From: Oceanispirochaeta sp.
GTDB lineage: Bacteria; Spirochaetota; Spirochaetia; DSM-2461
Direction of reading: 5' to 3'
DNA: 64,000 bases
NCBI GenBank assembly: GCA_963663385.2
Contig: CAXXXD010000004.1
Span: forward strand, 1,056,001-1,120,000
Below, piece by piece: positions 24,615 to 54,931 of this stretch. The position numbers and the translations under genes were made by a program. Position 1 is the stretch's first letter. The number at the start of each line of letters is the position of its first letter. The notes under the pieces were generated by a model. That model ran no database searches and was not told the DNA's origin. It saw only the letters and a list, made by a program, of their open reading frames with translations.

Positions 24615-24624
24615 TTCCTTATAC

Positions 24625-29871: not shown

Positions 29872-30084
29872 TGTAATATTTCCTTTCCCTTATTCTATCT
29901 GGAAATCAACTCCACGGCTTCTTTTACAAGTGCCGTTATTCTGTTCCAGTTGCCTTCCTCAATATCGGCTGCTTTTCCAACCCATGTCCCTCCGGCACAG
30001 AGGATCTGGGGAATAGCCAGATACTCTTTCAGGTTTCCGGTGTTCACTCCGCCTGTGGGCATAATATTAATCTCCAGGTGTTTG
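28774..30084. repeat. Direct repeat, copy B (kdgK plus 3' part of eda)
   Basis: Near-identical to 21010-22320. Confidence 0.95.
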
Positions 30085-30551: not shown

Positions 30552-30570
30552 TTCATTTCTCCTCAGATGT

Positions 30571-31988: not shown

Positions 31989-33494
31989 TTATAAAGTGAC
32001 ACCATCTTTAAAAATGGCGATTTCCCGTATCCCGCTTTTTTCGGCAGCCGTTTCTTCTCCGTTTATAACCCTCAGTATTTTATCCAGCAGGATTTCACCA
32101 GCTTCTGCCATATTTGAAGAGCCGTCTTCAATAATTCCTGCATTAAAGTCGATCCACTTCTTCTTATGTTCCGCCAGAGCCGTATTGCTGGCTATCTTAA
32201 GAGTGGGAATAAACCCACCCAGAGGGGTCCCCCTTCCGGTTGAAAAAAGGACAAGCTGGCATCCTGCTGTTCCTAGGGCTGTGGTCGCAACAATATCGTT
32301 CCCGGGAGCATACAGGAGGTTGAGTCCTTTCTTTTTGATCATTCCGTCCATTTTGACAACATCCACAATCTCTGATTTTCCGGATTTTCTGATGCATCCC
32401 AGAGATTTATCTTCCAACGTGGTAATCCCTCCGGCTTTGTTGCCCGGAGAAGGATTCTCATATACAGGCTGATTATTGTCCCTGTAGTAACCCTTATAGG
32501 TCTCTATCATATCTTTCGTCATTTCAAAGATCGACTCATCGGCGCACTGTTTCATCAGAACATTTTCCGCTCCGAACATTTCCGGGACTTCAGTCAGAAC
32601 GGCCGATCCCCCGGATTTAATTATCCTGTCAGAAACAGATCCGATCAGAGGATTGGCGGTTATACCGGAAAAGGCATCCGAACCGCCGCATTCCAGGCCG
32701 ATTATAAGATCGGCCCAGGATCCGTCTGTTCTTACATCTTTTGATGCCGCTTCCAGCAGCTCTTCCAGGAAGGCAATTCCGGCTTCTATTTCATCCGCCT
32801 CTTCCTGGGCTTCCAGGTATCTGATCCTTGCGGGATCAGGCTCTTCCGGCATAGTCTCCCGAAAGGCTTTTATCTGGTTGTTTTCACAGCCCAGTCCAAG
32901 AATCAGAACTCCTCCCGCATTGGGGTGAAGGGCTATATTCTGCAGTAGATTCCGGGTCCTTTCATGGTCTTCTCCAAGTTGAGAACAGCCGTAGGGATGT
33001 GTGAAACAGTAAACCCCGTCAACACCGGATAGTCCTTCTTCTCCCTTCTTCATCAGGAATCTCTGGAGAATCTGCTGCGCTGTTCCGTTGACACAGCCAA
33101 CAGTTGGAAGAATCCATAGTTCATTGCGAATCCCGGCTTTCCCGTTTTTCCGTTTAAATAATCGGGGAACTGTAGAAAGGGGAATGATATCAGAGCTGTT
33201 TTCCGACGGTTCGTATCTATATTCAGACTGCTCTGACAGACCGGTTTTTATATTATGAATATGGACATGATCTCCCACAGGGATATCTTTGAGAGCATAG
33301 CCGATTACTGCACCATATTTCAGGACAGCTTCGCCCTTACCAATCTTTTCTACGGCAACTTTATGCCCTTTGGGAATATCTTTCAAAACCTGGATTTCAC
33401 TCTGATGGGCATCTACGGTCATCCCGGGTTTCAGGTCGGAAAAGGTTATTCCCACATTATCTTTTTCATCAAGGAAAAACAGGGAGGGGTTCAA
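31989..33494 (-). CDS. uxaA: Altronate dehydratase
   Basis: SAF domain (GHKVA, HVHIHN), HPYGCSQ, GLGCE, CGGSD, PSPGNKAGG. Confidence 0.92.
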   Translation of the reverse strand: MNPSLFFLDEKDNVGITFSDLKPGMTVDAHQSEIQVLKDIPKGHKVAVEKIGKGEAVLKYGAVIGYALKDIPVGDHVHIHNIKTGLSEQSEYRYEPSENSSDIIPLSTVPRLFKRKNGKAGIRNELWILPTVGCVNGTAQQILQRFLMKKGEEGLSGVDGVYCFTHPYGCSQLGEDHERTRNLLQNIALHPNAGGVLILGLGCENNQIKAFRETMPEEPDPARIRYLEAQEEADEIEAGIAFLEELLEAASKDVRTDGSWADLIIGLECGGSDAFSGITANPLIGSVSDRIIKSGGSAVLTEVPEMFGAENVLMKQCADESIFEMTKDMIETYKGYYRDNNQPVYENPSPGNKAGGITTLEDKSLGCIRKSGKSEIVDVVKMDGMIKKKGLNLLYAPGNDIVATTALGTAGCQLVLFSTGRGTPLGGFIPTLKIASNTALAEHKKKWIDFNAGIIEDGSSNMAEAGEILLDKILRVINGEETAAEKSGIREIAIFKDGVTL

Positions 33495-34972
33495 AGGTAC
33501 TCCTCCAGTGTATTTTTCATGCCATTTGTCACAATCTTCATAATATATTCCGCCACTTTCTCATGGAGTCCATCAAGGCTTTTAAGAGAGACTCCCCAGT
33601 GATCATCCAGAGAGAGAATCCTGTCTGCAATGGCCATGGCATCGTCCAGGGATTCAGGGGCTTTCTTCCAGAGTTCTTTATAGAGCTCCAGAAATTCCTT
33701 ATCGTCCTTAACCGGATACTCTTTGCCGTCCAGAGTTCCTCTGTAGAAACAGATCAGGGCGGCCAGAGAGAGAGACATCAGCGGTGGAACCGTAGAATTT
33801 GTTTTATAATACCCCAGGAACTGAGGCAGTAGACGGGTTTTGAACTTGGTCATGGAATTCAGAGAGATGGAAAGCAATTGATGATTAATAAAGGGATTTC
33901 GGAAACGGTTTAAAACGGTTTCCGCATAATCTTTCAGATAGTCTTCAGGCATCCCCAGGTTGGGAATAATCTCATTGTCCAGCAGATTCTGGACAAATAG
34001 GGCGATATTATTATTTTCTACCGCATCTTTAACAAGCTCGATCCCGCACAGATAGGCTACCGGAACCAGAGCCGTATGACAGCCGTTCAGAATCCCGACT
34101 TTTCTCTGTTTGTAAGGTTTCAGATCTTCCACCAGTTTTATGTTCAGTCCGCTGTTTTCCAGATGAAGCTCTTCCGCTACAAATTGGGGCCCCTGGATGA
34201 CAAACAGATGAAAGTACTCTCCTGTTGTAATAAAGCTGTCCTTATATCCCAGTTCCTTTACCAGTTCTTCCACTTCATCTCCGGGATAACCCGTTACAAT
34301 TCGGTCCACAAGGGTTGAACAGAAAGTATTGTCCTTTTTGATCCAGGAGATGAAATCCTGTCCCAGGTTCCAGAGGTGCGCATATTTCAGGACAATTTCT
34401 TTAAGGGCCTCTCCGTTATAATCAATCAGCTCACAGGGAATCAGAATAAAACCGGAATCTGAGGCACCGTTGAATTCCTTATATCGTTCATGGAGGAAAC
34501 GGGTCAGTTTCCCGGGATAGGAAGAGGGGGGACGATCGTCATAATTATCTTCCGGATTATAGGCAATACCTGCTTCAGTCGTATTGGATACGATAAACCG
34601 CAATTGAGGATTTTCCGCCAGCGACAGGAACTGATCATATTCTTTATAGACGGGAATTTCCCGGTCGATGCAGGAAATCAGGCGTTTCTCGTTTTTCAGT
34701 TTTCCCTTATTATCATAGCCCCGTATGATGGAGGTATAAATACCATCCTGTGTATCCAGTAGAGGAGGGAAGTCTGTATCTATGGGGCGTACCACTACAA
34801 CACCGGCATCCAGGCCTTTTTGTTCATTAAGAATATCCACCTGCCAGTCAATGAAACAGCGCAGAAAATTCCCTTCTCCAAACTGAAGGATTTTTAGCGG
34901 TCGTTTCTGTTTTATGCAGCCGTTTCGGGCGGCTACAGATTTATTTAATGCTGTATCTTCTGTATTGCTCAT
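33491..34972 (-). CDS. uxaB: Altronate oxidoreductase (tagaturonate reductase)
   Basis: QFGEGNFLR, SNTTEAGI, PCELI, TLVDRIV, RFRNPFI. Confidence 0.93.
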   Translation of the reverse strand: MSNTEDTALNKSVAARNGCIKQKRPLKILQFGEGNFLRCFIDWQVDILNEQKGLDAGVVVVRPIDTDFPPLLDTQDGIYTSIIRGYDNKGKLKNEKRLISCIDREIPVYKEYDQFLSLAENPQLRFIVSNTTEAGIAYNPEDNYDDRPPSSYPGKLTRFLHERYKEFNGASDSGFILIPCELIDYNGEALKEIVLKYAHLWNLGQDFISWIKKDNTFCSTLVDRIVTGYPGDEVEELVKELGYKDSFITTGEYFHLFVIQGPQFVAEELHLENSGLNIKLVEDLKPYKQRKVGILNGCHTALVPVAYLCGIELVKDAVENNNIALFVQNLLDNEIIPNLGMPEDYLKDYAETVLNRFRNPFINHQLLSISLNSMTKFKTRLLPQFLGYYKTNSTVPPLMSLSLAALICFYRGTLDGKEYPVKDDKEFLELYKELWKKAPESLDDAMAIADRILSLDDHWGVSLKSLDGLHEKVAEYIMKIVTNGMKNTLEEYL

Positions 34973-35015: not shown

Positions 35016-35756
35016 TTACTCCCTCTGGTCTTCTGGGAAAACCCGTTTTAATGCCCAGTTTCTGTGCTGAACCATCGCTTCTTCAGCCAGATCGGGATCA
35101 CCCTGCCGGATAGCTTCCATGATTCTTATATGTTCCAGGGGAATTCTGGAGAAATCTTTATCCTTCTGTTTCAGATGAGGCTGATCCTGCATAACGATTC
35201 GCGGAGTCAACTGGCTGAACAGGGATACCAGGACATGGTTCCCTGTAGCATGAGCTATGGCCAGGTGAAAGAGGTAGTCTTCCTCCAGATAATCTTCTTT
35301 GCCGTAGAAGCGGGCCAGAAACTCCTCCTGCCTGGTTTCAATCAGATCCAGATCCGTTTCTGTGCGTCTCTCGGCGGCCAGTCTGGCACACTGAACATCC
35401 AGAATAAACCTGGCTTCCATCAAGTCTGCCATCTTCTGGTTTCGGCTGACAGGTATGGACTGCATCAGCTGCTCCACTGTACCGGCATGCATATTGGCAA
35501 TACGGGTGCCGCTTTGAGGGGAGATCTCAACAAGACCATAGAAGTCCAGTTTCTGCAGAGCTTTTCGGATCGTTCCCCTTGTGGTTTCCATTTTTTCCGC
35601 CAGGGCTCTTTCCGATGGGAGCCTGGCTCCGGGCTGTAGCTGTCCGGAGACCACTAATTCCCTGATTCTTGTGAGAATGAAATCTTCCGGTTCACGGTCA
35701 TTGCCGCTATTTTCAAAAAGTTCAATGGATATGACTGATTTATTATCCGGTTCCAT
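35016..35756 (-). CDS. FadR/GntR-family regulator (likely hexuronate repressor)
   Basis: PGARLPSER wHTH plus FCD; lies directly upstream of uxaB. Confidence 0.88.
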   Translation of the reverse strand: MEPDNKSVISIELFENSGNDREPEDFILTRIRELVVSGQLQPGARLPSERALAEKMETTRGTIRKALQKLDFYGLVEISPQSGTRIANMHAGTVEQLMQSIPVSRNQKMADLMEARFILDVQCARLAAERRTETDLDLIETRQEEFLARFYGKEDYLEEDYLFHLAIAHATGNHVLVSLFSQLTPRIVMQDQPHLKQKDKDFSRIPLEHIRIMEAIRQGDPDLAEEAMVQHRNWALKRVFPEDQRE

Positions 35757-35787
35757 GTAAATCCCCTTGTCTTCTTATTTTAAATTT

Positions 35788-36314
35788 TTATTTACAGGAT
35801 TTGCATTGTCCTTCCATAGTCATTTGCTGTGCATAATTCCAGAAATCATCGGCCAGAGTGCTGTCCCCGAGCCCGTTTCCCGGGAGAATGAAGGCCCGGG
35901 ACCGGGTTATATAAAGGTAAAAATACTCCTTATACCTGAAAACCCGGTGGACGAAGCTCCATTCAAACTGTTGCTGTTCATTCCGGTTTGATACTTCGAT
36001 CTTTTCTTTCTCAAAGCGGGTAGTGTAAATCAGATGCCTTTCGGCGAGTTTATTTTTTTTATCTGATTCCGGAGGCTGATCCTGTAGGAGAGTATATACA
36101 ATCCGGGAGTCACCAGAGCCAGTACAAGGAATAAGCGGAACAGAAAAGGACTCCCCGTTACCAGATTCAAGACACCCAATCCTGACATAACCAGAGGAAA
36201 CAGCATGAGACTGATCCACCGGCCATGGAGCAGAAAACTGTTAAAGAAGGCGAAGTCTCTGAATGTTTTAACATCCACATATGTATCAAACTGATATATT
36301 CTGCTTTGCCCCAT
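35788..36314 (-). pseudogene. YcxB-like membrane protein split by a frameshift in an A8 tract
   Basis: A two-TM N-half (MGQSRIY...NQIKK) and a YcxB-like C-half (FEWS...KEYFYLY...AFILP) join if one A is added at 36053-36060. Confidence 0.7.
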
Positions 36315-36339
36315 CTTATATCCTTTTTCTATCCTGGAT

Positions 36340-36389
36340 TGGTTGACCACATATTTAATTTATACAACTGGTTAACCAGTTGTGTCAAT
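36340..36389 (-). promoter_or_regulatory. Sigma70-type promoter with FadR-type operators
   Basis: Minus strand TTGACA-N18-TATAAA; the perfect 20-bp palindrome ACAACTGGTTAACCAGTTGT (36364-36383) spans the spacer; a second site TGGTTGACCA lies at about 36340-36349. Confidence 0.75.
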
Positions 36390-36477
36390 GAATTCCCTGA
36401 TTATTTAACAGATTCCTTCAGGGGATATACGAAAAAAATACTCATACTGTAGCTTTTTATGGTACTATACAGCGGTT

Positions 36478-38388
36478 ATGCCCCTTTTTGAAATCTTCGG
36501 AAACATTATTATACCGGTTCTATCCGGGATTTTTCTCTTTACCTACTTTCTCTATTTTGCGCTTATTGAGGAATCAAAAACCAGTTCGATCCGATACTTT
36601 ACAGTATTTCTCATTTCTTTCTGTGTTTTTCTGTTCGGGCGGCCTGTTCAGATACTTTCAGGGGGGCATCCTTCGCCCCTGATTATCAATAATATCCGTT
36701 CTTTCGTTCTCAGTTCTGTTACCATCCCTATGGTGATCCTTGCAGATTTCTCCCGTCCGGAAAAAGACCGGAGAGACCGGTTTTGGCCTTTGATTATAAT
36801 GGGAGTTCTGGTTGGTGTTGTTTATACAGTATTCAATACTCTGACTACCACCGGAGCGGAAGTTATTTTTACCATAGGAAGCTTTAATGTATACGATTCG
36901 ATAACTCCCAGCCATACAGGACCCTTCTACGGAAGAGAGGTTACCATTGCAATTTATCTTGTTCTGGCCATTATCCTCTTTCTGGATTCCCTGAGTAAAA
37001 TACAACGGGCGAGACACTACAAGGGGATAGGAGAGTTATTCAGAAAGAGGATCTATCTTTATAACACTGGGAAAATGATCTTTGCGTTTACATTTTTCTG
37101 TGGTGCACTGATTCATATGTGGTGGATCTATTATGTAGGCTCCCTGATAGGAGTCTCCTTTCTGGGTTACGGAGTTGCCCTCGATATCAGGGAAAACCGG
37201 AAAAGGATGCAGAAAGTTATTGCCTATATCAGAGAAGATCTGATTCAGGATCTGTCACTGGATGTTCAGATGCATCAACAGGTATCGGATATGCTGAAAC
37301 TGTTGCATATTCCCGAAGACATCAACACCTTTGTTGTGCTTAAAGAAAATCTACATGGAAGGGGTAAAACCAGCAGCAATAATCTGAATGACTCTCTGTT
37401 CAGGGAAGCTGGAAATATTCTGGATAAAATCCTCGGCAGGAATCATTACATACTGATGCCAATGGGCACAGATATGTTCGGGCTCTGTCTTCCTGTTGCT
37501 TCGGAGACAGAGATCTGCCGCAGTACTACAATCAGGGTATGTGAAACACTGAAAAATTCACTGGCTGCCCTTCAGAATTATGATTTTGGCATCGGCCGAT
37601 CCTATAAAGGACTGGAAGACCTTAAAAGCTCCTACCATGAAGCCGTAACGGCTGTGGAATATGCCAACCGGATAGAGGGGGGGCAGGTTATTCATATCAC
37701 GGATATTCAGGATGAAGAACCCCGGAGAGAGTATCCCCTGAAAGAGAAGAGTGCTTTTCTTGCGGCTATCCGTATGGGAGAAAGTGCGAAAGCGCAGGAA
37801 CAGCTTCAGCGTTTAACGGGGCTGCTTTTCAGCTATGGCAGTGAAACTGACAATCTACAGAAAGTCCGTACATATGAGCTTCTGGGCACCATGGTTGAAT
37901 CCGCAATTGCCGGGGGAGGAGATGTGGATGAGCTGCTTGAGATCAGTGAAAAACTGTTTTCTGAATCAGCTATAATCCGTAGTCAGGGGCAGCTGCTGGA
38001 GTGGCTTAAATCCCGTACCGATGAGATCATCCTGATTGTATCCCGTTCTCATTCAAATCGGTATAAAAATCTGGTGATCAGGGCAAAAGAGTATATAAAT
38101 GAGCATTATGCGGAAGCTATCACCGTGCGGGATGTCGCGGATGCCGTCTGTATCAGCGAATCCTATTTTAAAACAATTTTCAAAAAAAGCAGCGGATACT
38201 CCTATTCGGAATATTTAACCATAGTCAGAATGAATCAGGCAAAGAATCTTCTAAATAAAACTGAAAAATCCGTAACCGAGATAGCCCTTGATGTGGGGTA
38301 TCAGACCCCGAACTCCTTCAGTTCCCTTTTTAAAAGAGAAACCGGATTGACTCCCACGCAGTTCAAGAACAGCAGTAAAAAAAACTGA
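36478..38388 (+). CDS. AraC-family regulator with N-terminal multi-TM sensor domain
   Basis: About 7 TM segments, CdaR-like middle region (GIGRSY..L..SY.EA), C-terminal AraC HTH (IALDVGY..FSSLFKRETGLTP). Confidence 0.85.
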   Translation: MPLFEIFGNIIIPVLSGIFLFTYFLYFALIEESKTSSIRYFTVFLISFCVFLFGRPVQILSGGHPSPLIINNIRSFVLSSVTIPMVILADFSRPEKDRRDRFWPLIIMGVLVGVVYTVFNTLTTTGAEVIFTIGSFNVYDSITPSHTGPFYGREVTIAIYLVLAIILFLDSLSKIQRARHYKGIGELFRKRIYLYNTGKMIFAFTFFCGALIHMWWIYYVGSLIGVSFLGYGVALDIRENRKRMQKVIAYIREDLIQDLSLDVQMHQQVSDMLKLLHIPEDINTFVVLKENLHGRGKTSSNNLNDSLFREAGNILDKILGRNHYILMPMGTDMFGLCLPVASETEICRSTTIRVCETLKNSLAALQNYDFGIGRSYKGLEDLKSSYHEAVTAVEYANRIEGGQVIHITDIQDEEPRREYPLKEKSAFLAAIRMGESAKAQEQLQRLTGLLFSYGSETDNLQKVRTYELLGTMVESAIAGGGDVDELLEISEKLFSESAIIRSQGQLLEWLKSRTDEIILIVSRSHSNRYKNLVIRAKEYINEHYAEAITVRDVADAVCISESYFKTIFKKSSGYSYSEYLTIVRMNQAKNLLNKTEKSVTEIALDVGYQTPNSFSSLFKRETGLTPTQFKNSSKKN

Positions 38389-38565
38389 TTTTTTCCCTGT
38401 TTTATACAATTTAATAGTTAGAAAGTACAATCGAATAGTCATAAAGTACAAATTCAGAGAAAGTCAAAATCTTCCATAGAGCGGTATTACGATTCCCGTC
38501 ATAGCATTTAACAGTCATTTGATAATTACTTATCGAGTGATGTAAATACCAAATGGAGGATTCTT

Positions 38566-39591
38566 GTGAAAAAAAGAATTGTTTTACTTTCTGCTGTATT
38601 AATGATGGTCTCTGCCATGGCATGGTCTAATGGTCAGAGTGAAGGTGATGCTGCCGGGGATGGTGAAAAAAAAAGCTACACTTTCAAATTTGCTGAACTC
38701 AACCCCAAAGGCCATATTATGGAACAGGTGGATTCCAGGTTCGCAGAGCTGGTTTATGAAAAATCAGATGGTCGTATTAAAATTGAGGTTTTCCCTGCTG
38801 GTCAGTTAGGTGATGAAAAAACCATGTATCAGTCCCTTCAAATGGGTGGTGGCGCTATCGATATGTGCCGTGGCAACACCAACTCGCTGGGTGATTTCGG
38901 TGTAAAAAAACTAACCCTTTTCGGTCTTCCCTTTATTTTCAGGGACAGAGAACATTTATGGAATGTTCTGAACAGTGAAATCGGAAAAGAGTTCCTGAGA
39001 GAACCTCAGGAAACCGGTACCGGTATGGTTGGTTTGTTCTACCTGGATGAAGGTGCCCGTCATATTTTTACCAAACCCGGTATTGAGATACATAATGTAA
39101 ATGATCTGAAAGGACTGAAACTCAGAGTCCCCACGACCCAGTTGATGTCTGAAACTTTCCAGGCCCTAGGCGTACAGCCTACCCCCATCAGTTTCGGTGA
39201 ACTGTATTCCGCTCTTCAGGCCGGTACCGTTGATGGTGCTGAACAGCCTTACTCCGGTTATTTTTCCAACAACTTCTTTGAAGTGGCTCCCAACTACACC
39301 CTCTCGGGACATACATACAGTCCCTCTATCGTTCTTATGAGTGAAGCGGTATTCAACAAACTGGATGCCGAGGATCAGGCTATTATCATGGAAGCCGGAA
39401 AAGAGGCTGAACAGTATAACCTTTCTTCTATCGAAAAGCTTGACGGCGAATTGATTGAAAAGATCAAAGCCGCCGGTGCCGGTGTCAGTGAAGTTTCTGA
39501 TAAGGTAGCTTATGTTGATCTGGCCAAGCCTGTTGTTATGAAATACATCGAAGGCCTGGAAAGCTATTACGAAGCAATCCTCTCCAAGTAA
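38566..39591 (+). CDS. dctP: TRAP substrate-binding protein
   Basis: Signal peptide, QLGDEK, GLKLRVP, ALQAGTVDGAEQP. Confidence 0.92.
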   Translation: MKKRIVLLSAVLMMVSAMAWSNGQSEGDAAGDGEKKSYTFKFAELNPKGHIMEQVDSRFAELVYEKSDGRIKIEVFPAGQLGDEKTMYQSLQMGGGAIDMCRGNTNSLGDFGVKKLTLFGLPFIFRDREHLWNVLNSEIGKEFLREPQETGTGMVGLFYLDEGARHIFTKPGIEIHNVNDLKGLKLRVPTTQLMSETFQALGVQPTPISFGELYSALQAGTVDGAEQPYSGYFSNNFFEVAPNYTLSGHTYSPSIVLMSEAVFNKLDAEDQAIIMEAGKEAEQYNLSSIEKLDGELIEKIKAAGAGVSEVSDKVAYVDLAKPVVMKYIEGLESYYEAILSK

Positions 39592-39599
39592 TTGAAAAA

Positions 39600-39625
39600 G
39601 CATACCTCCCATAGGGGAGGTATGC
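39600..39625 (+). terminator. Stem-loop after dctP (terminator or mRNA stabiliser)
   Basis: GCATACCTCCC-ATAG-GGGAGGTATGC; weak U tail on +. Confidence 0.6.
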
Positions 39626-39645
39626 CGTTCCCTGATTGACTATCC

Positions 39646-39718
39646 CCTGACTCCTCTCGGTCTCCCCGAGGGGGAGAGGTTAATTCTCCCCTCCTTCGGA
39701 GGGCGGGGGGAGGCCAGC
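39646..39718. repeat. REP-doublet-like GC-rich inverted repeat
   Basis: Two short hairpin-forming arms (TCTCCCCGAGGGGGAGA and CCCTCC-TTC-GGAGGG) in inverted arrangement. Confidence 0.5.
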
Positions 39719-39800
39719 CTGAAAAGGTTCGATTATGGAAAGGCCTTAAGGGAATCTATATCTATTCTGAGAGAGGATTCAGTGGGAGAGAGGAGTTCAA

Positions 39801-40376
39801 ATGAAAGCAGTTAAAAAATTTTTTGATATGGTTTACTGGGTATTTCTGACAATCTGTAAAATCGGTTTTATTGGAATGATTGTTATTACAACCTGGGTTA
39901 TTATCAACCGCTATTTCATCAAATCACCCATGACATGGGGTGAACCGGTTGTTCTTATGTTTATGGTTTACATGTCACTTATAAGCGCTGCTCTGGCAAT
40001 CCGGAAAGACACTCATATCCGAATGCAGATTATCGACTTCCTGGTTCCGGAAAAAGTTATGCCGGTTATAAGAGCTTTCGGGCAGGTTCTCATGTTCGGT
40101 TTCGGACTTTTTTTATTTATATACGGCAGCAAATTCTTAAACATTGCCAAACGGAATATCATCACTGGAATGTCTATCAAGTCAAGCTGGCTTTTTTTGG
40201 CCGGGCCCGTTTCAGGGGCCGCCATTATGCTGATGGAAATAGAACGTTTTATTAACTTCTGGCACCGTGTAGTTACTGGGCAAAAGCTTGAAATAACCCG
40301 ATGCCAGGAAGAAGAAGCGGAAGCCCTTGTGGAAGATGCAGCAGAAATCATCCAACACTGCGAGGATAATAAATAA
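39801..40376 (+). CDS. dctQ: TRAP transporter small permease
   Basis: Four TM segments, NRYF..WGE, HIRM. Confidence 0.88.
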   Translation: MKAVKKFFDMVYWVFLTICKIGFIGMIVITTWVIINRYFIKSPMTWGEPVVLMFMVYMSLISAALAIRKDTHIRMQIIDFLVPEKVMPVIRAFGQVLMFGFGLFLFIYGSKFLNIAKRNIITGMSIKSSWLFLAGPVSGAAIMLMEIERFINFWHRVVTGQKLEITRCQEEEAEALVEDAAEIIQHCEDNK

Positions 40377-41686
40377 TGGATCATAATACTATAGCCACCC
40401 TCATTCTGGTGGGATCATTTTTTGTCTTTCTGGTTCTGAGAGTCCCTATCGCATTTGCTATTGGTGTCTCCAGTATTGTGACAACTATCTATCTGGGACT
40501 TCCTATCATGCAGATAGCCCAGCTCATGGTAAAAGGTGTGAATGTCTACACCCTTATGGCTGTTCCGTTTTTTATTATTGCAGGAGAGCTTATGGGGGCC
40601 GGGGGAATCTCAAACCGCCTTATTAAACTCTCCAATGCCATCATAGGATGGATGCGCGGAGGTCTTGCCACGGTAAATGTTATGGCTTCCATGTTTTTCG
40701 GAGGAATCTCCGGATCTTCCACTGCAGACACCGCGTCCCTGGGAACAATTTTGATTCCCATGATGGCCAAAGAAGGGTACGACAAGGAATTCGCCACTAA
40801 TATTACTATGGCCAGTTCCGTTCAGGGGCTGCTTATTCCTCCCAGCCATAATATGGTCATGTATGCCATGGTTGCAGGAGGTGTTTCTGTAGGCCGTCTG
40901 TTCCTGGGGGGGATTATTCCCGGAGTTTTCCTTGGTATTGCCTTGATGGTGTTCAGCTATATCGAAGCTGTCCGTCATAAATACCCCAAAGGTGATCCTT
41001 TCAATTTCAGGACACTGGTCAAAACTCTGGGAGACTCCATATGGGGACTGATCACTGTTCTGATCGTTGTTGTCGGTGTTGTCAGCGGTGTCTTTACCGC
41101 TACCGAGTCTGCGGCGATTGCCGTTGTCTGGGCGATCCTTGTGGGAATCATCGTCTACAAGGAACTCACGCCGGTTAAAATCTGGCATTTGATGGAACGG
41201 TCCCTTAATACTCTGGCTATTGTTATGATCCTGATTTCCACCTCCCAGGTATTCGGATGGCTGCTGACCTATCTCCACATGCCGGAGCTGGTCGCCAACG
41301 GGATTCTCAGTTTTACACAGAACAGGATTGTTATAATGATCATTCTAAATATTGTTATGCTCGTTTTGGGAACCATTATGGATATGTCTGCCATTATTCT
41401 TGTTGCCACTCCGATTCTCCTGCCGATTGCCTGTACAATAGGGATGGACCCGGTACATTTCGGCGTGGTTATGATTCTGAACCTTGGTATCGGACTGATT
41501 ACCCCTCCGGTGGGTGGGACTCTCTTTGTGGGATCTGCTGTTTCGGGTGTGCCCATTGAGAAGCTCGTAAAAAAGCTGCTGCCTTTCTTTATGATTATGA
41601 TTGCAGTACTTCTGATCATATCCTATGCGCCGGATATTGTGATGTTCCTTCCGGATAAACTGATGCCCCTTGCTGCAGGAAACTGA
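40376..41686 (+). CDS. dctM: TRAP transporter large permease
   Basis: GGISGSSTAD, LIPPSH, ITPPVG. Confidence 0.92.
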   Translation: MDHNTIATLILVGSFFVFLVLRVPIAFAIGVSSIVTTIYLGLPIMQIAQLMVKGVNVYTLMAVPFFIIAGELMGAGGISNRLIKLSNAIIGWMRGGLATVNVMASMFFGGISGSSTADTASLGTILIPMMAKEGYDKEFATNITMASSVQGLLIPPSHNMVMYAMVAGGVSVGRLFLGGIIPGVFLGIALMVFSYIEAVRHKYPKGDPFNFRTLVKTLGDSIWGLITVLIVVVGVVSGVFTATESAAIAVVWAILVGIIVYKELTPVKIWHLMERSLNTLAIVMILISTSQVFGWLLTYLHMPELVANGILSFTQNRIVIMIILNIVMLVLGTIMDMSAIILVATPILLPIACTIGMDPVHFGVVMILNLGIGLITPPVGGTLFVGSAVSGVPIEKLVKKLLPFFMIMIAVLLIISYAPDIVMFLPDKLMPLAAGN

Positions 41687-41714
41687 TTGTGAACATTTTT
41701 TATGGGGATTGCCT

Positions 41715-42482
41715 ATGACTCCTGCAGAAACTCTCATGGACGCCTTATCCTCTTTTCCTGTTGTGCAGAATCCCCGGGGAGCTGTCATTATCTGTCCTGG
41801 CGGAGGATACGAGATGCTGGCAGACAGAGAGGCCGAACCGGTCGCAGCGGCATTTGCCGACAGCGGCTGGCAGCCCTTTGTGCTCCGGTATCCCATAAAA
41901 GAAGAATCCGGATCTGCTCCGCTTTTATCAGGGCCTCTAAAGTCGCTGGGCCGGGCTGTTTCCATAGTGAGGAGAAAAGATTTTTCCTCTGTGGTTCTCT
42001 GTGGTTTTTCTGCGGGGGGACATCTGGCTGCTTCCCTGGGGGTGCATTGGCCGGACCTGGTCGATCAGTTCGGTGACTGTCGTCCGGATGCTCTCATCCT
42101 CAGTTATCCTGTGATCTCCATGAAAAGCCACTTTCATGAGGGCTCTATGCTGAATCTGACAGGGGCTGACCCGGAATGGCGGGATTACTTCTCTCTGGAA
42201 AATCAGGCTGGTCCGGACTCGGTTCCCGCTTTTCTCTGGCATACCTGTGATGACAGGGATGTCCCGGTGGAAAACTCCCTGATGTTCTTTTCCGCTCTCA
42301 GATCAGCAGGCGTTACCAGTGAACTGCATATTTTCCCCAGGGGCGAGCATGGCCTGTCTCTGGCTACGCCAGAGGTGGACCAACCGGAAAAGAACCGCTA
42401 TGCGGATTCTCATGTGGCGAAGTGGTTTTCTCTCTCTATCGGATGGCTTGAGGAAATTCTGGGAACTCCTGCAGGTCAGTGA
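41715..42482 (+). CDS. Alpha/beta hydrolase (carbohydrate esterase-like)
   Basis: CPGGGY, GFSAGGHLA, D..VPVENS, GEHG catalytic triad. Confidence 0.85.
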   Translation: MTPAETLMDALSSFPVVQNPRGAVIICPGGGYEMLADREAEPVAAAFADSGWQPFVLRYPIKEESGSAPLLSGPLKSLGRAVSIVRRKDFSSVVLCGFSAGGHLAASLGVHWPDLVDQFGDCRPDALILSYPVISMKSHFHEGSMLNLTGADPEWRDYFSLENQAGPDSVPAFLWHTCDDRDVPVENSLMFFSALRSAGVTSELHIFPRGEHGLSLATPEVDQPEKNRYADSHVAKWFSLSIGWLEEILGTPAGQ

Positions 42483-42511
42483 TTAAATACAAGAAACTTA
42501 TGGATTAAAAA

Positions 42512-43639
42512 ATGAAAGATGAATTCAATACAACATTAGCGGACTCTCAGGGTACATCTGTTACTCCTCTTGCTGCAGAAGATTTTAACCTGGAAGCATT
42601 TGCCGATTACGAAGCGTCGCTTCTGGATGGGTGTGGAAAATTCTGGCAGGCAGAAGACGGCGTAGCCGTTTACCGGAGGGTCAGAGTTCCCGAAGTATTT
42701 TCATGGGCATGCCGGGATAGAAAAACTTCTCTGGAACTTCAGCTGGCGGGGTTGAAGAAAAGTATGGCATACAAAGCGGATATTCCCAATTTTCTGGAAC
42801 CCTGGTACGGGATCGGAGTTGTCTCCAGTGCCTTCGGGGTCCCCTATATCTGGAAAGACGGGCAGGCTCCGGCTGTGGAAGGGCCTTATAAAACCGCTAG
42901 AGAAGCCATTAATTGCTGCAGGACCTCTGTGAAAGAGAGTCCCGAGGGGAAACGGGTTCTGGAGATGATTGAGTACTTTCTGGATCAGACCGGAGGGAAA
43001 ATCCCTCTCAGCCCGGGAGATACTCAATCTCCTCTCAATATTGTTTCCTCCTATCTGATGGACTCCTCAGCCTTTATGTTTGAGATTTTTGATCATCCCG
43101 ATGATCTGAAAGAACTGATTGATACTGTTGCGGAACTGGAAAAGGATTTTCTGGATGAACAGATCAAACTGATTGGTGATGCGCTGGTTAAACCGGGGCA
43201 TGGATTTGCCTCCTGCCGGTCTTTTGAAGGGATCGGGTTCAGTGATGACAATATTCTTATGTTCAGTGATGATGACTACAGCCATCTTGGTATTCCATCC
43301 ATGACGGCGGCCTCCGGATCTTTCGAAGGATCTGTATTTCATTCCTGCGGAGACTGGTCTCCGAGAGCTGATCTGGTTAAATCCATTCCTTCTCTGCTTA
43401 TGGCTGACGGGGCTGTGGGAAATCAGACCGATCCCTCGCCCAATGATCCGGAAACTCTGGGAAAAGCCTTTGCCCGTTCCGGTAAGGTTCTGCATGTGAG
43501 AATTGTCGGCTCTGCCGAAACGGTGCTCGAATATTACGGAAGATTGAAACGGGAAGGGCTGAAATGTATTGTTACAACCTATTGCGAGACTCCGCCAGAT
43601 CAGGAAAAAGTGTACAGAGGGATTCATGAGTCTGCCTGA
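42512..43639 (+). CDS. Uroporphyrinogen decarboxylase/MtaA-like fold protein
   Basis: DTQSPLNI, FDHPDDLKEL, SDD, FHSCG metal-binding motif. Confidence 0.7.
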   Translation: MKDEFNTTLADSQGTSVTPLAAEDFNLEAFADYEASLLDGCGKFWQAEDGVAVYRRVRVPEVFSWACRDRKTSLELQLAGLKKSMAYKADIPNFLEPWYGIGVVSSAFGVPYIWKDGQAPAVEGPYKTAREAINCCRTSVKESPEGKRVLEMIEYFLDQTGGKIPLSPGDTQSPLNIVSSYLMDSSAFMFEIFDHPDDLKELIDTVAELEKDFLDEQIKLIGDALVKPGHGFASCRSFEGIGFSDDNILMFSDDDYSHLGIPSMTAASGSFEGSVFHSCGDWSPRADLVKSIPSLLMADGAVGNQTDPSPNDPETLGKAFARSGKVLHVRIVGSAETVLEYYGRLKREGLKCIVTTYCETPPDQEKVYRGIHESA

Positions 43640-43700
43640 CAGGACCCTCTGTTTCATTGATCAGGAAGTATAATTTGAAACTGAAATAAGGAACAGGTCT

Positions 43701-44741
43701 ATGAAATATGATATAACATTCCATCCCTCCTGGTGGAATCAGAAGCTGGGAATCAGGTTTACAGAAAAATTCTTTGATGATCCGGAATATAGAATCGCTT
43801 CGGATGTGAAAATGCGCCGGTTTCTTTTTGAGAAATTCGGAGAATGGGGAATCGGGGAGGAACATCCCGAACCCAGACCCCTCCTGGGGAGTGATCTCAT
43901 TGCCAGCGGTTATCTCTATTCCGGAATCCTGGGTTGTGACATTCGTTTCAGTGAGGAGGCTCCCCCGGAAGTGATCTGCGCTGCCCTGTCAGAAAAGGAT
44001 GCTTTGGATTTTGCTGCCCCCTCCCTGGAAAGCAGTCCCGACTGGCAGATTGTGGAAAAGCAGATCGCATGGCTTCAGAAAGAGTACGGATACGTCCATT
44101 CTGCGATTAATCTGCAGGGTATACTGAATCTTGCCCTGGATATCAGGGGAGATTCCATCTTTATTGATATGTATCAGAATGAAAAGGGCGCCAGAAATCT
44201 TTTTGACCAGTGTTTTAACCTTTCTGTACAGGTGGGAAGAAGGCTGTCCGAGGTCTCAGACTACTTGTCCGGAGGCGTTACGGCCATTACCAATTTTCTG
44301 GATATTTCAAAACTCTATGTTCATTCAAACTGCTCCGTGGAAATGATCTCTCTGGACAGCTACCGGGAATTCCTTCTGGAATATGACAAAAAGCTTTCCG
44401 GAATTTTTCAGCCATACGGGATTCACCACTGCGGTCAGTCCATGGAACATGTGGCAGAAGGTTATGCGGAAATTCCAGATCTGGTTTTTGCCGAAGTGGG
44501 TGCCGGATCGGATATTGCCAAGGTTAGAAATGTACTGTCCGGCTGCCGGCTGAATTTGCGCTATTCTCCAGTGAAATTGGCAGATGTGAATGAAGAGGTG
44601 TTGAGGGAAGACCTTTGCAGGATGGTTAAGGACGCCGGAGGAGGGGATCCCTCTGTATCTGTTTCCTGTGTGGGAATTGACAAATCTGTTCCGGATTCTC
44701 ATATTGTAAAATTTCTGGAGATACTCAAGGATCAAGTGTAG
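43701..44741 (+). CDS. Uroporphyrinogen decarboxylase/MtaA-like fold protein
   Basis: LQGILNLALDIRG, NCS.EMIS, IHHCG, SCVG. Confidence 0.65.
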   Translation: MKYDITFHPSWWNQKLGIRFTEKFFDDPEYRIASDVKMRRFLFEKFGEWGIGEEHPEPRPLLGSDLIASGYLYSGILGCDIRFSEEAPPEVICAALSEKDALDFAAPSLESSPDWQIVEKQIAWLQKEYGYVHSAINLQGILNLALDIRGDSIFIDMYQNEKGARNLFDQCFNLSVQVGRRLSEVSDYLSGGVTAITNFLDISKLYVHSNCSVEMISLDSYREFLLEYDKKLSGIFQPYGIHHCGQSMEHVAEGYAEIPDLVFAEVGAGSDIAKVRNVLSGCRLNLRYSPVKLADVNEEVLREDLCRMVKDAGGGDPSVSVSCVGIDKSVPDSHIVKFLEILKDQV

Positions 44742-44793
44742 TCAGCTCAACCATTTTATTCTAAAGAATGGTTTGCATCTCTGCTGTCAATTG

Positions 44794-45912
44794 TCATTGA
44801 ACCAGGCGGTTCAACACCATCAGGCTGTTTCCGGAATAACCGGGGAATGGCCGGGGATGGAGTATTCGGATTTTATCCATAATATAGTCCCTTTTTTCCC
44901 TGTTGAGGATCACTTTCCGAAGGGATGTTCCCGGAATCTCATCATAGTGATAACCGATCGGTGCTGTTGAGGGAGAGAGTCTTTGCCTGTCGTACCAGTA
45001 AACCAGCTGTATTTCCTCTTCATGTATCTCTATAGCGGTAATTCCCCGTTTTCCTATGGCGCAGCCGGAATTGAAAAGACAGGGCAGCAGTTCGTCCGAG
45101 CTGTACAGCTCGCTGATATGAAACTCGCTTTTATGCTTCATTTCCCGCAGCTCTTCCTGGTATTGAAAAATCTCCTTTCTTATCCTGAGCTGTTCCGGAG
45201 AGCCGGCTTCCCTATAGCGGCGGACCAGATCCTCTATTCTGTATTTCAGGCTGTCCCGTTTTGAATGGGACTCAAACAGGGGCCTGTGGGTATGACCGAT
45301 TATGGAGATCAGTCCCAGCTCACGGGAAGCTTCATAGGCTTTTACTTCCGTTTTGATTTTCTTTCTGCTGTCAGGCGACTTGGAAAAATTCATAATGCCC
45401 AGGGGGTAGGCAATAAACTGCAATGTAAGCTTGCAGAGGGTTTCAAATCGCTGCAGGAGCTCTGAAAACTGATGGCCGTGATAAACAAGAATCGAGTCCT
45501 GATCCTTATGCAGTTCCAGGCTTTCATATATGGGAAAGGGATAATCGAAATTGGGATTTGAAAGAATCAGATCGTGATTTCCGACAGTTTTATGAAGCCT
45601 TCCTGAATTCTGAAACTGTTCAAAGACGGAATAGAGGTCTTTCCACTGTTTCCATATCTGTTCCCAGCGAAATTTATGAAGTTCTTCAATATCTCCATTA
45701 AGGATAAGGTCATAGTTCCGGGGCAGGTAGTAATCTGTCAGAATCTTCTGAAACCAGATGCCGTTTTCGGCAAAATCATCCCTGGATCCCCCGTTGCCCA
45801 TATGCAGATCACTGAAGATCACAAATCTTTTATCAGAAAGGGGGATTCTTAAGGCTTTCTCTCTGGTTTCCTGTAACAGAGATACACTGTGTATCCGGGG
45901 ATTATATTCCAT
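44794..45912 (-). CDS. Metallophosphoesterase (LpxH/PlcP-like calcineurin fold)
   Basis: SDLH, NGDIEE, GNHD, HGH, GHTH, NSG. Confidence 0.85.
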   Translation of the reverse strand: MEYNPRIHSVSLLQETREKALRIPLSDKRFVIFSDLHMGNGGSRDDFAENGIWFQKILTDYYLPRNYDLILNGDIEELHKFRWEQIWKQWKDLYSVFEQFQNSGRLHKTVGNHDLILSNPNFDYPFPIYESLELHKDQDSILVYHGHQFSELLQRFETLCKLTLQFIAYPLGIMNFSKSPDSRKKIKTEVKAYEASRELGLISIIGHTHRPLFESHSKRDSLKYRIEDLVRRYREAGSPEQLRIRKEIFQYQEELREMKHKSEFHISELYSSDELLPCLFNSGCAIGKRGITAIEIHEEEIQLVYWYDRQRLSPSTAPIGYHYDEIPGTSLRKVILNREKRDYIMDKIRILHPRPFPGYSGNSLMVLNRLVQ

Positions 45913-46006
45913 ATATCATTCAGTCTAGGGGCTGCTTCATTGGCTAGTCATGAAAAAAGTGTTAGGAATCGGCTAAAATACCGATTCCCTTATTACCCGG
46001 CCTCAA

Positions 46007-47089
46007 TCAGGCCGTCAATTCTCTGATCTTCCTGATCCGTTCAGGAATATAGTTGAAAAAACTGCAGCTGACGCGGGGCGATAATTTTTTCCCGGATGTT
46101 TCGGTTGTAAAAAAATACCGAATGATTGACGCGGTTTTTTCCGTGTCGTCACCGGTTCGGAATGTATGAAAAGGATCGGCTTTAAAGGGGAACCGGGGGA
46201 GATCCTCCAGAAAGGCGGTCAGGTCCTCTCGCAGCCTTTTCATTTCTGTCTGGCGCCCCCAGCCGCTGGCTTTCAGCATCCGGGCATTGAGCCTCTGTTC
46301 ATACTGCCCCTGCTGGGGAATGGCCAGAACCGGTTTTTTGAGAAACAGGGCTTCCGACAGGAGCTGGTGTCCCGCCGGGGCAAGAACTCCGGCGCATCCG
46401 GCTAAAGATGTCACAAAGTCTTTATCGGGACCGGGAAAGATATGAAACTCCCTGTCCGGATAATCTCCCAGTATTTCCCTTATCTCATCGGCGGAGGATT
46501 TTTTAACATAAACCAGAATATAGTCTCCCTTTTCGGGGACAGCCTGTCGAACCTCTTTTCTTAGAATAGGGCCGACATCTCCATCATAAAAAGAACAGAT
46601 CAGGTTTTTCTGCGCCGGAGGAGTCATGAAGGACGCTACAGCTTTTGCGCTGACAGCGTCGGGAAGAATCGAGAATGAACGGCGGACAACCGCCGGATGG
46701 TTCAGATTGATCAGGGGAATTTCAGCCTTGGCAGAGGCGACTGCCGTAAAGGGCTCAAAATCGCTGATCACTCCCTGAATATCATTATCTTTCATTTCCC
46801 GGGCCATTTGATCGGTAATTTTATTGAATCGGCCGATGAGGGGCATATTCATGACTATAGTTCCCCAGTAATCCACTCTATGCTTTTGAAGAGAGAAGTG
46901 GAGTCCCGGAATGGTACTGATTCGGATATCCTGACACTTCTCATACAGAAATGATTGTATGGATTCAGGGCTCCAAACGGTTATATCCAGATCTTGCCTC
47001 AGTTCCGGCCAGAGAGCGGCCGTTCGGGCGGCATGCCCCCGTCCTTCCCCATTGCATCCATAGATAATTTTCATCTTTTTATTCACCAT
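46007..47089 (-). CDS. GT-B glycosyltransferase (MJ1255/MurG-like)
   Basis: GEGRGHAAR, ISDFEP, AGHQLLSEA, QYEQRLNA. Confidence 0.85.
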   Translation of the reverse strand: MVNKKMKIIYGCNGEGRGHAARTAALWPELRQDLDITVWSPESIQSFLYEKCQDIRISTIPGLHFSLQKHRVDYWGTIVMNMPLIGRFNKITDQMAREMKDNDIQGVISDFEPFTAVASAKAEIPLINLNHPAVVRRSFSILPDAVSAKAVASFMTPPAQKNLICSFYDGDVGPILRKEVRQAVPEKGDYILVYVKKSSADEIREILGDYPDREFHIFPGPDKDFVTSLAGCAGVLAPAGHQLLSEALFLKKPVLAIPQQGQYEQRLNARMLKASGWGRQTEMKRLREDLTAFLEDLPRFPFKADPFHTFRTGDDTEKTASIIRYFFTTETSGKKLSPRVSCSFFNYIPERIRKIRELTA

Positions 47090-47141
47090 ACCCCTTTCTA
47101 CATGGGAGATGTGAAATTTCAATATGAATCGGGTTATATTT

Positions 47142-49181: not shown

Positions 49182-49199
49182 GATAATCCACAGGAAACT

Positions 49200-50369: not shown

Positions 50370-50532
50370 ACCCCCATATTTCTTCACAAATACGAGGATT
50401 TGGTTTCTGTTTGATTAGAATCCGATTTAAGAGTGTTATATTTGCTTTTTCCAGTTAAATCAATAAAAAATTAATAATAAACAATCCTCTGATCAGGCCG
50501 TTTTTTGAAACTTGACAGGTTTGTAATAATAA

Positions 50533-52746
<2,214 letters not shown>

Positions 52747-52781
52747 TTCTCTGAACGGGAAAAGGAGTGCGGGATGGTTAA

Positions 52782-54930: not shown

Positions 54931-54931
54931 T

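Follow-up and report, generated by a model that had tools for sequence, protein, structure and literature searches.

Why should an operon for the predicted uptake of a sugar acid encode two proteins of the uroporphyrinogen decarboxylase (URO-D) fold, when the catabolic route for hexuronates lies beside it? The question is raised by a 64-kb stretch of an Oceanispirochaeta sp. genome (contig CAXXXD010000004.1, positions 1,056,001 to 1,120,000), here called the window. Within it, seven genes of the + strand (36478-44741) point in one direction, away from a hexuronate operon on the - strand, as a first-pass annotation of this DNA had described and as the open reading frame (ORF) list and the Pfam and NCBIfam scans bear out. 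Their spacing is operon-like, with gaps of 30 and 62 bases and two overlaps. The preferred reading is that the two URO-D-fold proteins, UD1 and UD2, carry out corrinoid-dependent O-demethylation of an imported, modified uronate. We infer both the substrate and the chemistry, and the reading is held tentatively, at somewhat less than an even chance. The seven genes are:

36478-38388, + strand: AraC-family regulator, 636 amino acids (aa; HTH_18 2.7e-22, HTH_AraC 3.1e-20, GGDEF_2 2.6e-7)
38566-39591, + strand: DctP, solute-binding protein of a tripartite ATP-independent periplasmic (TRAP) transporter (PF03480 7.4e-72, 242.5 bits)
39801-40376, + strand: DctQ, TRAP small permease (PF04290 7.5e-24, 84.5 bits)
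40376-41686, + strand: DctM, TRAP large permease (PF06808 9.1e-114, 380.9 bits; TIGR00786 411 bits, above cut-off)
41670-42482, + strand: alpha/beta-hydrolase esterase (Peptidase_S9 and Abhydrolase_3 matches)
42512-43639, + strand: UD1, URO-D/MtaA-fold protein, 375 aa (URO-D 1.6e-9, 37.7 bits)
43701-44741, + strand: UD2, second URO-D/MtaA-fold protein, 346 aa (URO-D 3.3e-4, 20.2 bits)

Two URO-D-like families without a name

Pfam places both proteins in URO-D, and public sources label their relatives 'uroporphyrinogen decarboxylase family protein'. The explanation that these labels invite is that UD1 and UD2 are true HemE uroporphyrinogen decarboxylases, or inactive remnants of them. Fold and family name are indeed shared with HemE, but the model cut-offs are failed. 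The PF01208 match of UD1 covers profile positions 29-199 of 346 only, that of UD2 lies under the 23.9-bit cut-off, and neither protein matches the HemE equivalog TIGR01464 at E<=0.01. No haem or tetrapyrrole gene occurs among the annotated ORFs of the window, in agreement with the earlier remark that haem-synthesis neighbours are missing, and the genome contains 29 URO-D matches. Identities of ~50% across phyla, together with about 57 invariant columns in UD1 and about 53 in UD2 (54 sequences each), argue for a different, selected function, and both proteins conserve a Cys-rich metal motif that HemE is not known to have. HemE identity, a possibility that the first-pass annotation had itself raised, is for practical purposes refuted, as UD1 and UD2 fail both the HemE model and a haem gene context. 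Judged by their sequences, they are not HemE, and they represent two conserved families without a name.

Among the NCBIfam models, only those of the MtaA/MtbA/CmuA type respond, at 19-22 bits against cut-offs of 235-600; for TIGR01463 (MtaA/CmuA, cut-off 235.4) UD1 reaches 19.4 bits and UD2 21.0 bits. Neither protein has a Pfam match to Meth_synt_1 or Meth_synt_2. Relatives at E<=0.001 number 1823 among 5521 candidates for UD1 and 445 among 3692 for UD2, and identities of ~48-50% are still seen in the best 120 relatives of each. The organisms named for them belong to Spirochaetota, Planctomycetota, Latescibacterota and Bacillota, to which further searching adds Bacteroidales, KSB1 and Cloacimonadota. 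Phocaeicola coprophilus, Butyricicoccus pullicaecorum and Geosporobacter ferrireducens are among the UD1 hosts.

The HxCG motif previously noticed in both proteins is invariant in 54-sequence alignments of each family. In UD1 it reads FHSCG (H277-x-C279...C358), with H230 and R55/R56/R58 likewise invariant; in UD2 it reads HHCG (H242-H243-C244...C323), with C211 and C79 likewise invariant. The distance from the motif Cys to the distal Cys is exactly 79 residues in both. Given this invariance and the distal Cys, the motif is conserved and not a chance tripeptide. Homology between the two proteins is evident as well (hhalign 96.6%, E 5e-10), with the one motif aligned to the other.

Searches of the PDB sequences with phmmer and with profiles gave nothing significant for UD1 or UD2, and fold comparison alone worked. 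The AlphaFold2 models have mean predicted local distance difference test scores of 95.4 (UD1) and 95.9 (UD2), and a URO-D/MtaA-type (beta/alpha)8 fold is predicted with high confidence. In Foldseek, the best match of both is the MtaA of M. mazei (4ay7/4ay8; E 6.5e-11 for UD1 and 1.1e-11 for UD2, TM 0.59-0.68), followed by UroD and then by MetE (E 1e-4 to 1e-5). Profile alignments place the His-x-Cys and the distal Cys of UD1 and UD2 in register with MtaA-like proteins, in keeping with the earlier view that an MtaA-type His-x-Cys...Cys set is kept. One canonical MtaA-like paralogue of this genome matches 4ay7 at E 3.5e-35, its HICG and G-C falling over LHICG and PGC, and a profile of this paralogue and the MtaA-like neighbours of UD1 aligns with UD2 at 98.5% and with UD1 at 97.0% (hhalign). 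The His-x-Cys...Cys residues are presumably the zinc ligands of MtaA, and the register points to a putative zinc site in UD1 and UD2.

Pairing and fusion of UD1 and UD2

Eighty UD1 loci, taken from species-representative genomes and in many cases lying on short contigs, were compared. A hidden Markov model search finds UD2 within 10 kb in 34 of the 80 loci, and 12 loci contain an MtaA-like third paralogue ('UROD3'); 40 have at least one of the two. Where at least 5 kb is available on each side of UD1, UD2 occurs in 23 of 46 loci. In 16 genomes whose UD1 locus has no UD2, a UD2-like gene is found elsewhere in nine and nowhere in seven.

The two proteins also occur as single chains. Among 46 longer UD1 relatives, 44 are UD2-UD1 fusions of 724-763 aa, with UD2 at the N-terminus and HxCG in each half, and the remaining two show the UD1 domain only. 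In a Bacteroidales fusion of 731 aa, the N-terminal half is 37% identical to UD2 and the C-terminal half 46% identical to UD1, and an MFS transporter gene follows. Because of these natural fusions, UD1 and UD2 probably act as a single unit, heterodimeric here and fused in other organisms. CdmB, a zinc-free methyltransferase I (MT I) of the UroD superfamily, is a homodimer (PMC13222342), which makes a UD1-UD2 heterodimer plausible; the same paper mentions zinc in some O-demethylases and the existence of uncharacterised clades.

Predicted transport, de-acylation and regulation

All three TRAP components score above their curated cut-offs, as they do with TIGR00787 and TIGR00786. A GC-rich hairpin of 12 pairs (39599-39626, scored on the - strand) lies just after dctP, within the 210 bases that separate it from dctQ; such structures are frequent behind genes for binding proteins. 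The closest solved chains to the DctP of the window are 4n8y (2.1e-52) and 4x8r (5.7e-50), which are listed as galacturonate- and glucuronate-bound proteins (PMC11668362). The predicted ligand is of the hexuronate type, and the earlier proposal of a sugar-acid importer gains support from this kinship.

The nucleophile elbow of the esterase reads GFSAG; no signal peptide is evident, and the enzyme is predicted to be cytoplasmic. Its TTG start overlaps dctM, with an ATG 45 bases downstream as a possible start. NCBIfam matches are to the lp_1002 arylesterase (8.5e-47), the pectin acetylesterase PaeX (9.4e-31) and the acetylxylan esterase AxeA1 (1.4e-28), all below the equivalog cut-offs (159.7 vs 300, 107 vs 550 and 99.5 vs 700 bits). 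The protein is a related alpha/beta hydrolase with a GxSxG elbow whose identity as PaeX, AxeA1 or lp_1002 fails the cut-offs.

The AraC-family regulator combines a polytopic membrane N-terminus, a GGDEF_2-like middle and a C-terminal double helix-turn-helix (HTH_18 79.3 bits and HTH_AraC 72.2 bits, both above cut-offs). Its first ~240 residues form a run of hydrophobic segments, as judged by eye from the translation, which fits the description of a membrane-sensing AraC protein in the first-pass annotation. ORF clustering places the same regulator family ahead of TRAP-UD1 in three other loci (L001, L004 and L005). A promoter and terminator scan of 35700-45000 found 20 promoter-like sites where 14.2 were expected and 14 terminator-like sites where 10.3 were expected, not above chance.

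On the other side of the regulator lies the divergent operon:

35016-35756, - strand: GntR/FCD regulator, head of the operon (Pfam; UxuR/ExuR NCBIfam matches below cut-offs)
33491-34972, - strand: UxaB, tagaturonate reductase (NF002969 674.8 bits against a cut-off of 359)
31989-33494, - strand: UxaA-type altronate/galactarate dehydratase family protein (GD_AH_C 3.1e-93)
30571-31968, - strand: UxaC, uronate isomerase (PF02614 4.1e-201)
29895-30632, - strand: KDPG/KHG aldolase (KdgA), a late pathway step (Pfam)
28774-29871, - strand: PfkB-family kinase, KdgK-like, a late pathway step (Pfam)

By annotation, these genes together make up the complete galacturonate route. A YcxB-like ORF (Pfam) lies on the same strand beside the GntR/FCD regulator, and UxuA is encoded elsewhere in the genome. 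GH28 has no match in the genome, which is 98% complete. The organism is thus probably a scavenger of monomers, which fits the TRAP system. The arrangement resembles the known combination of a hexuronate TRAP transporter with the UxaC/UxaB/UxaA/KdgK/KdgA (Ashwell) pathway, in that DctP is related to 4N8Y and 4X8R and the full pathway is divergent. However, the classical system needs neither an esterase nor URO-D-fold proteins, and both are unexplained additions here.

Neighbours of UD1 in other genomes

For the 80 loci and the window segment, 1026 ORFs were called and clustered, and representatives of the 54 commonest clusters were annotated. The neighbour counts are lower bounds, as only clustered families could be named:

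Clustered transporter family: at least 51 of 80 loci, 37 of them within 2.6 kb of UD1
Any of GH28, UxaE, UxaA/B/C and GH88/105: at least 27 of 80
GH28: at least 14 of 80
Esterase: at least 9 of 80
UxaA/B/C: at least 8 of 80
UxaE: at least 7 of 80
Corrinoid protein within 10 kb: 2 of 80

Transporters of four kinds (TRAP, MFS, SSF and ABC) are represented, a diversity that suggests an enzyme working in the cytoplasm on any compound brought in. Of the MFS neighbours, the most frequent falls in the D-galactonate (acid-sugar) subfamily and another is FucP; the GH28 representative is nearest to a rhamnogalacturonidase model. In several loci UD1 stands directly beside UxaE, UxaC or KduI: UxaC, UD1 and UD2 are contiguous in L066 and L074, and KduI follows UD2 in L024. 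Three unrelated types of esterase are found, namely a BD-FAE/PaeX-like alpha/beta hydrolase in the window and its nearest relative, an AXE1/DLH-like enzyme beside UD1 in Planctomycetota, and a GDSL esterase between UD1 and UD2 in Geosporobacter. That they were recruited independently suggests that the pathway includes de-acylation. The genome-neighbourhood comparison that the first-pass annotation had proposed thus shows that the tie of UD1 to uxa and pectin genes and to esterases recurs across phyla.

UD1 could in principle replace UxaC or the dehydratase. This is ruled out, as UxaC lies beside UD1 in the window, L066 and L074, and both UxaA and UxaB are present in the window. Since the core of uronate catabolism is encoded in full without them, UD1 and UD2 are an addition, most simply one that would pre-treat a modified uronate.

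The proximity of UxaE, UxaC or KduI also lends itself to an explanation free of methyl chemistry, in which a TIM barrel with zinc as Lewis acid would isomerise, epimerise, hydrate or decarboxylate the imported sugar acid. UD1 and UD2 are very remote from characterised members, as the empty PDB sequence searches show, and most UD1 loci have no corrinoid genes, both of which would suit such an enzyme. We nevertheless consider it quite unlikely. UxaC, UxaB, UxaA, KdgK and KdgA are complete in the window and in several other loci, which leaves no gap among the core steps; UD1 and corrinoid modules tend to occur in the same genomes (see below); the His-x-Cys...Cys triad, in register with that of MtaA-like proteins, is tied to alkyl transfer in known members of the URO-D superfamily; and UroD, the decarboxylase of the fold, is not known to need a metal. 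Nothing was found in favour of the 'novel decarboxylation' that the first-pass annotation had entertained.

The same survey bears on the idea that the enzymes are corrinoid-dependent but do not act on a sugar acid. On this view, UD1 and UD2 would either be MT2-type methylcorrinoid:thiol methyltransferases or demethylate a different small compound, and the uronate context would reflect co-regulation. Their motif is of the MT2 type, no uronate gene was recognised in 53 of the 80 loci, and FucP or an alpha-fucosidase takes the place of uronate genes in some. Against this stand the acid-sugar transporter (TRAP with a uronate-like DctP, or an ACS-family MFS protein) directly adjoining in most informative loci, the three esterase families recruited independently and the contiguous UxaC-UD1-UD2 genes of L066 and L074, all of which make the idea distinctly improbable.

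Corrinoid carrier and activator

A demethylase of the proposed kind would need a corrinoid protein and its activator. The genome contains three B12-binding_2 matches, in MetH, in a 301-aa ORF and in a 269-aa corrinoid protein. The last (C3:249143-249952) is encoded in an orphan hub (G000:C3:249143-253320; L081 5143-9320) together with a PocR-AraC regulator and a 613-aa RACo-type activator (C3:251479-253320). NCBIfam groups the hub corrinoid protein with MtgC/MtbC-type carriers and the activator with AcsV/RamA. The hub is flanked by genes for an aldose 1-epimerase and an ankyrin-repeat protein, has no methyltransferase gene beside it, and shows the same synteny in a metagenome-assembled genome (MAG) of Oceanispirochaeta (L109).

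In two loci the components are found close to UD1. The Bacillota MAG contig L066 carries genes for an ABC transporter, a LacI regulator, UxaC, UD1, UD2, RACo (on the opposite strand), a corrinoid protein and an MtaA-like protein, and the Bacteroidales MAG L072 those for UD1, an acid-sugar MFS transporter, a corrinoid protein and an MtaA-like protein. In both, the corrinoid protein gene is translationally coupled to the MtaA-like gene. L072 also encodes a 609-aa ETF-MTHFR fusion (3972-5801, - strand) ~2 kb from these genes.

Across genomes, UD1 and corrinoid modules tend to be found together. The first five UD1 genomes tested all have a B12-binding_2 ORF of non-MetH size. Of 40 further UD1 genomes, 34 encode a corrinoid protein of 208-270 aa; two have, besides MetH-sized ORFs, only a 604-608-aa fusion, another two only a 958-988-aa fusion, and two incomplete genomes (from metagenome or single-cell assembly) have no corrinoid protein. 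With the genome of the window counted in, a non-MetH corrinoid module (MtaC-type) is present in 44 of 46 UD1 genomes. The background was estimated from 201 sampled Bacteroidales with TIGR02370 at E<=1e-44, after a co-occurrence test with PF02607 had proved uninformative (171 of 201 genomes match, mostly via MetH). TIGR02370 matches 45 of the 201, comprising all four UD1-positive genomes and 41 of the 197 UD1-negative ones (21%). Chance would give four out of four with a probability of ~0.002 (hypergeometric, relatedness uncorrected). The orphan hub, this co-occurrence and the one locus with all components (L066) support the earlier suggestion that the corrinoid protein acts in trans.

A possible route of demethylation

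In the pathway proposed here, the TRAP transporter would take up a modified hexuronate, from which the cytoplasmic esterase would strip acyl groups. The UD1-UD2 zinc enzyme, as the substrate-specific methyltransferase, would then move the O-methyl group from the uronate onto the shared corrinoid protein in its Co(I) state, which RACo would keep active. In the least supported step, the methyl group would pass to a thiol or to homocysteine via one of the MtaA-like paralogues of the genome. The freed uronate would enter the UxaC/UxaB/UxaA pathway, and the membrane-anchored AraC protein may sense the substrate and switch the operon on. The obvious candidate substrate would be 4-O-methylglucuronate, with other methyl-etherified uronates of arabinogalactan, xylan and rhamnogalacturonan II as further candidates. 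An ether is a likelier target than a methyl ester, because a free carboxylate is required by DctP-type proteins and by MFS carriers of acid sugars, and ester cleavage does not call for B12 chemistry. A methyl-esterified monomer was rejected as the TRAP substrate on the same grounds, as it has no free carboxylate and can simply be hydrolysed.

Several observations weigh against corrinoid-dependent O-demethylation. His-x-Cys...Cys is presumably the motif of the thiol-methylating MT2 enzymes and not the one reported for ether-demethylating MT1 enzymes. No B12-binding_2 match exists in the window, which confirms the earlier statement that it contains no corrinoid gene, and elsewhere such a gene lies within 10 kb of UD1 only in L066 and L072. 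None of the 46 longer UD1 relatives contains a B12-binding domain, and the two-barrel fusion recalls the cobalamin-independent MetE. RACo was found in three of five UD1 genomes and not in two Bacteroidales drafts; in one Alistipes genome (L107), a gene resembling the MetH activation domain is found instead, ~1 kb downstream of that for a 227-aa corrinoid protein. A stand-alone pterin-binding (methyltetrahydrofolate, methyl-THF) methyltransferase is missing from the genome, which has only a FolP-like ORF and MetH. The co-occurrence is confounded by kinship, as many UD1 genomes are related to one another, and by the other URO-D paralogues of these genomes, which could be the true partners of the corrinoid protein. 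Among the clustered families that could be named, the 53 loci without a recognised uronate gene add to these points, as does the finding that the UD1-UD2 pair is not obligatory (no UD2 at all in 7 of the 16 genomes mentioned above).

A sub-threshold B12-binding match (28.7 bits against 32.1) was seen at 791-1024 on the - strand, in a 724-aa frame that runs off the start of the window; the frame lacks a B12-binding_2 cap and is unlikely to encode a methyl carrier.

Part of this evidence is accommodated by a cobamide-independent, MetE-like transfer, in which the two barrels of UD2 and UD1 would move the methyl group, from an ether or a methyl ester, directly to a zinc-activated thiol such as homocysteine. 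The 44 two-barrel fusions with HxCG in each half, the significant Foldseek matches of both models to MetE structures, the 78 of 80 loci without a corrinoid neighbour and the lack of both a B12-binding fusion and a stand-alone methyl-THF methyltransferase are all consistent with it. However, MtaA surpasses MetE as a structural match, corrinoid modules are present in 44 of 46 UD1 genomes as opposed to 21% of the UD1-negative Bacteroidales, and in L066 the genes for RACo, the corrinoid protein and the MtaA-like protein directly follow UD1-UD2. In addition, on general chemical grounds a thiolate would not readily displace a sugar alkoxide directly. Direct transfer is regarded as unlikely.

Corrinoid-dependent demethylation can be extended to a broader proposal, in which UD2-UD1 is a two-barrel zinc enzyme of at least six phyla that demethylates uronate ethers without O2, a single hub of corrinoid carrier and activator serves about two dozen URO-D-fold methyltransferases in sugar loci, and the methyl group ends on homocysteine, so that methionine would be built from methyl groups of the plant wall. 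The last element is suggested by Bacteroidales proteins that join URO-D-like, MetH homocysteine and corrinoid domains and adjoin pectin lyases. Taken as a whole, this extended version is doubtful.

Other URO-D paralogues and the methyl acceptor

Of the 29 URO-D matches in the genome, 28 ORFs were aligned; about 20 have HxC and six HxD, and many have His in place of the distal Cys. Of 23 regions around the other paralogues, 13 (L082-L094) were annotated in full and one (L095) in part, with L096-L104 left out. In ten of the 13, uptake genes of the ABC or MFS type are present, mostly accompanied by sugar kinases and by regulators of the AraC or two-component type. Four paralogues are canonical MtaA-like proteins. 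One MtaA-like paralogue (L085:5480-6841) is followed by a CobW-family GTPase. The genome thus encodes parts of a three-component O-demethylase, namely the corrinoid protein, RACo and MtaA-like MT II candidates, with no stand-alone pterin-binding MT II among them.

In two UD1-bearing Bacteroidales, the corrinoid module, of the MtgC type, forms the C-terminus of a long protein of 956 aa (L111:3550-6420) or 1249 aa (L110:2110-5859). A MetH homocysteine-binding domain lies in the middle (PF02574, 5.9e-81 and 6.2e-96), and the first ~400 residues stand in place of the pterin-binding module of MetH. One of the genes adjoins a PL11 rhamnogalacturonan lyase and a pectate lyase, the other an SSF transporter. 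These proteins are candidate methionine synthases that may draw the methyl group from a source other than methyl-THF. By eye, their N-domain resembles that of a 601-aa N-domain-corrinoid fusion of Phocaeicola coprophilus (L106:3126-4931), encoded between GH31 and an SSF transporter. The match of the latter N-domain to MtaA-like profiles is weak (hhalign 73%, E 3e-5) and serves as a lead only. The corrinoid gene of the Alistipes genome lies beside GH141 and GH31 genes. GH141 and GH31 (GH31 alone in P. coprophilus) presumably fit the breakdown of rhamnogalacturonan-II side chains, with release of 2-O-methylxylose. The domain make-up of the long proteins and their N-domain resemblance hint that in such Bacteroidales methyl groups from glycan-derived compounds end on homocysteine.

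Comparison with known systems

The UroD superfamily covers UroD, MetE, an epoxide coenzyme M transferase and O-, S- and halogen-demethylases (PMC10418091). Its MT I enzymes pass the methyl group of their substrate on to a corrinoid protein, whose reduced state is maintained by an activator of the RACo type (PMC13222342, PMC10418091). The closest structural relatives of UD1 and UD2 are MtaA, MtbA and MtsA, the methylcobamide:coenzyme M methyltransferases (MT2) of methanogens (4AY7/4AY8). They share the His-x-Cys...Cys arrangement, with a spacing of 77 in the 4ay7 sequence against 79 here, but identity is 13-15%, and UD1 and UD2 differ in having no adjoining corrinoid protein, in their sugar-acid uptake context and in forming a pair or fusion. 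The hosts of UD1 and UD2 are fermentative bacteria, in which coenzyme M is not expected.

The OdmB, VdmB, MtvB, MtoB and CdmB systems belong to the same superfamily, and their corrinoid protein and activator have counterparts in this genome, side by side in L066. The substrates known for these systems are, however, aryl methyl ethers and halomethanes rather than sugars. Moreover, OdmB-type systems are compact operons, whereas carrier and activator would here form a remote, shared hub, and CdmB is zinc-free (PMC13222342), whereas UD1 and UD2 keep a Cys-rich motif. MetE has a related barrel, zinc-thiolate alkyl transfer and two barrels per chain of ~750 aa, as in the UD2-UD1 fusions, but it is the more distant match in Foldseek and its Meth_synt families are not recognised in UD1 or UD2; the fusions carry the metal motif in both halves, whereas in MetE only the C-terminal barrel is known to do so.

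For the role proposed here, the nearest parallel is a cytochrome P450 that demethylates 6-O-methyl-D-galactose in aerobic marine bacteria (PMC6292453). It has the same logical role of unblocking a methylated sugar for catabolism, but depends on O2, has an unrelated fold and acts on a neutral sugar. A full-text literature search (without supplements) returned no paper tying URO-D-fold proteins to sugar or uronate loci and nothing on anaerobic sugar demethylation, and this P450 was the only demethylase of sugar methyl ethers found.

Plant and algal glycans commonly contain methyl-etherified sugars, among them 4-O-methylglucuronate, 2-O-methylxylose and 2-O-methylfucose. How anaerobes in guts and sediments handle such sugars is not described in the literature searched, and the present locus offers a concrete candidate, consisting of a transporter, an enzyme pair conserved at ~50% identity from Spirochaetota to Bacteroidales, and a carrier and activator in the same genome. 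New here are the UD2-UD1 family and its fusions, the tie to hexuronates, the all-in-one locus L066 and the background-controlled co-occurrence count. If corrinoid-dependent demethylation is correct, it would add a new substrate class to the corrinoid methyltransferases, account for many genes in sugar loci that are misannotated as 'uroporphyrinogen decarboxylase family' and tie cobamide availability to fibre degradation. If it is not, UD2-UD1 is still a widespread, conserved and uncharacterised zinc-motif enzyme family of uronate metabolism.

Other features of the window

Downstream of the divergent operon, a second sugar-acid cluster of low GC content (0.38 against ~0.47) occupies 21010-28350 on the - strand. 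It encodes an SDR resembling gluconate 5-dehydrogenase/KduD, another TRAP DctPQM system, an HpcH/GarL-like aldolase and a GntR regulator. The KDPG aldolase and the 365-aa PfkB kinase are each present here in a second copy, and the stretch has the look of an acquired island in which the final pathway steps are duplicated. Convergent on UD2 are genes of the - strand (44794-50387) for a metallophosphoesterase-like ORF, an MJ1255-family glycosyltransferase, a GH2 enzyme and a UDP-glucose 6-dehydrogenase; the GH2 enzyme is closest to beta-glucuronidase models (204.7 bits, below the cut-off of 544). Beyond them, on the + strand (50548-56107), a catalase-peroxidase-like gene with two peroxidase domains is followed by rubredoxin and rubrerythrin genes. 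These form an oxidative-stress cluster, and the other genes of the organism suggest anaerobic life.

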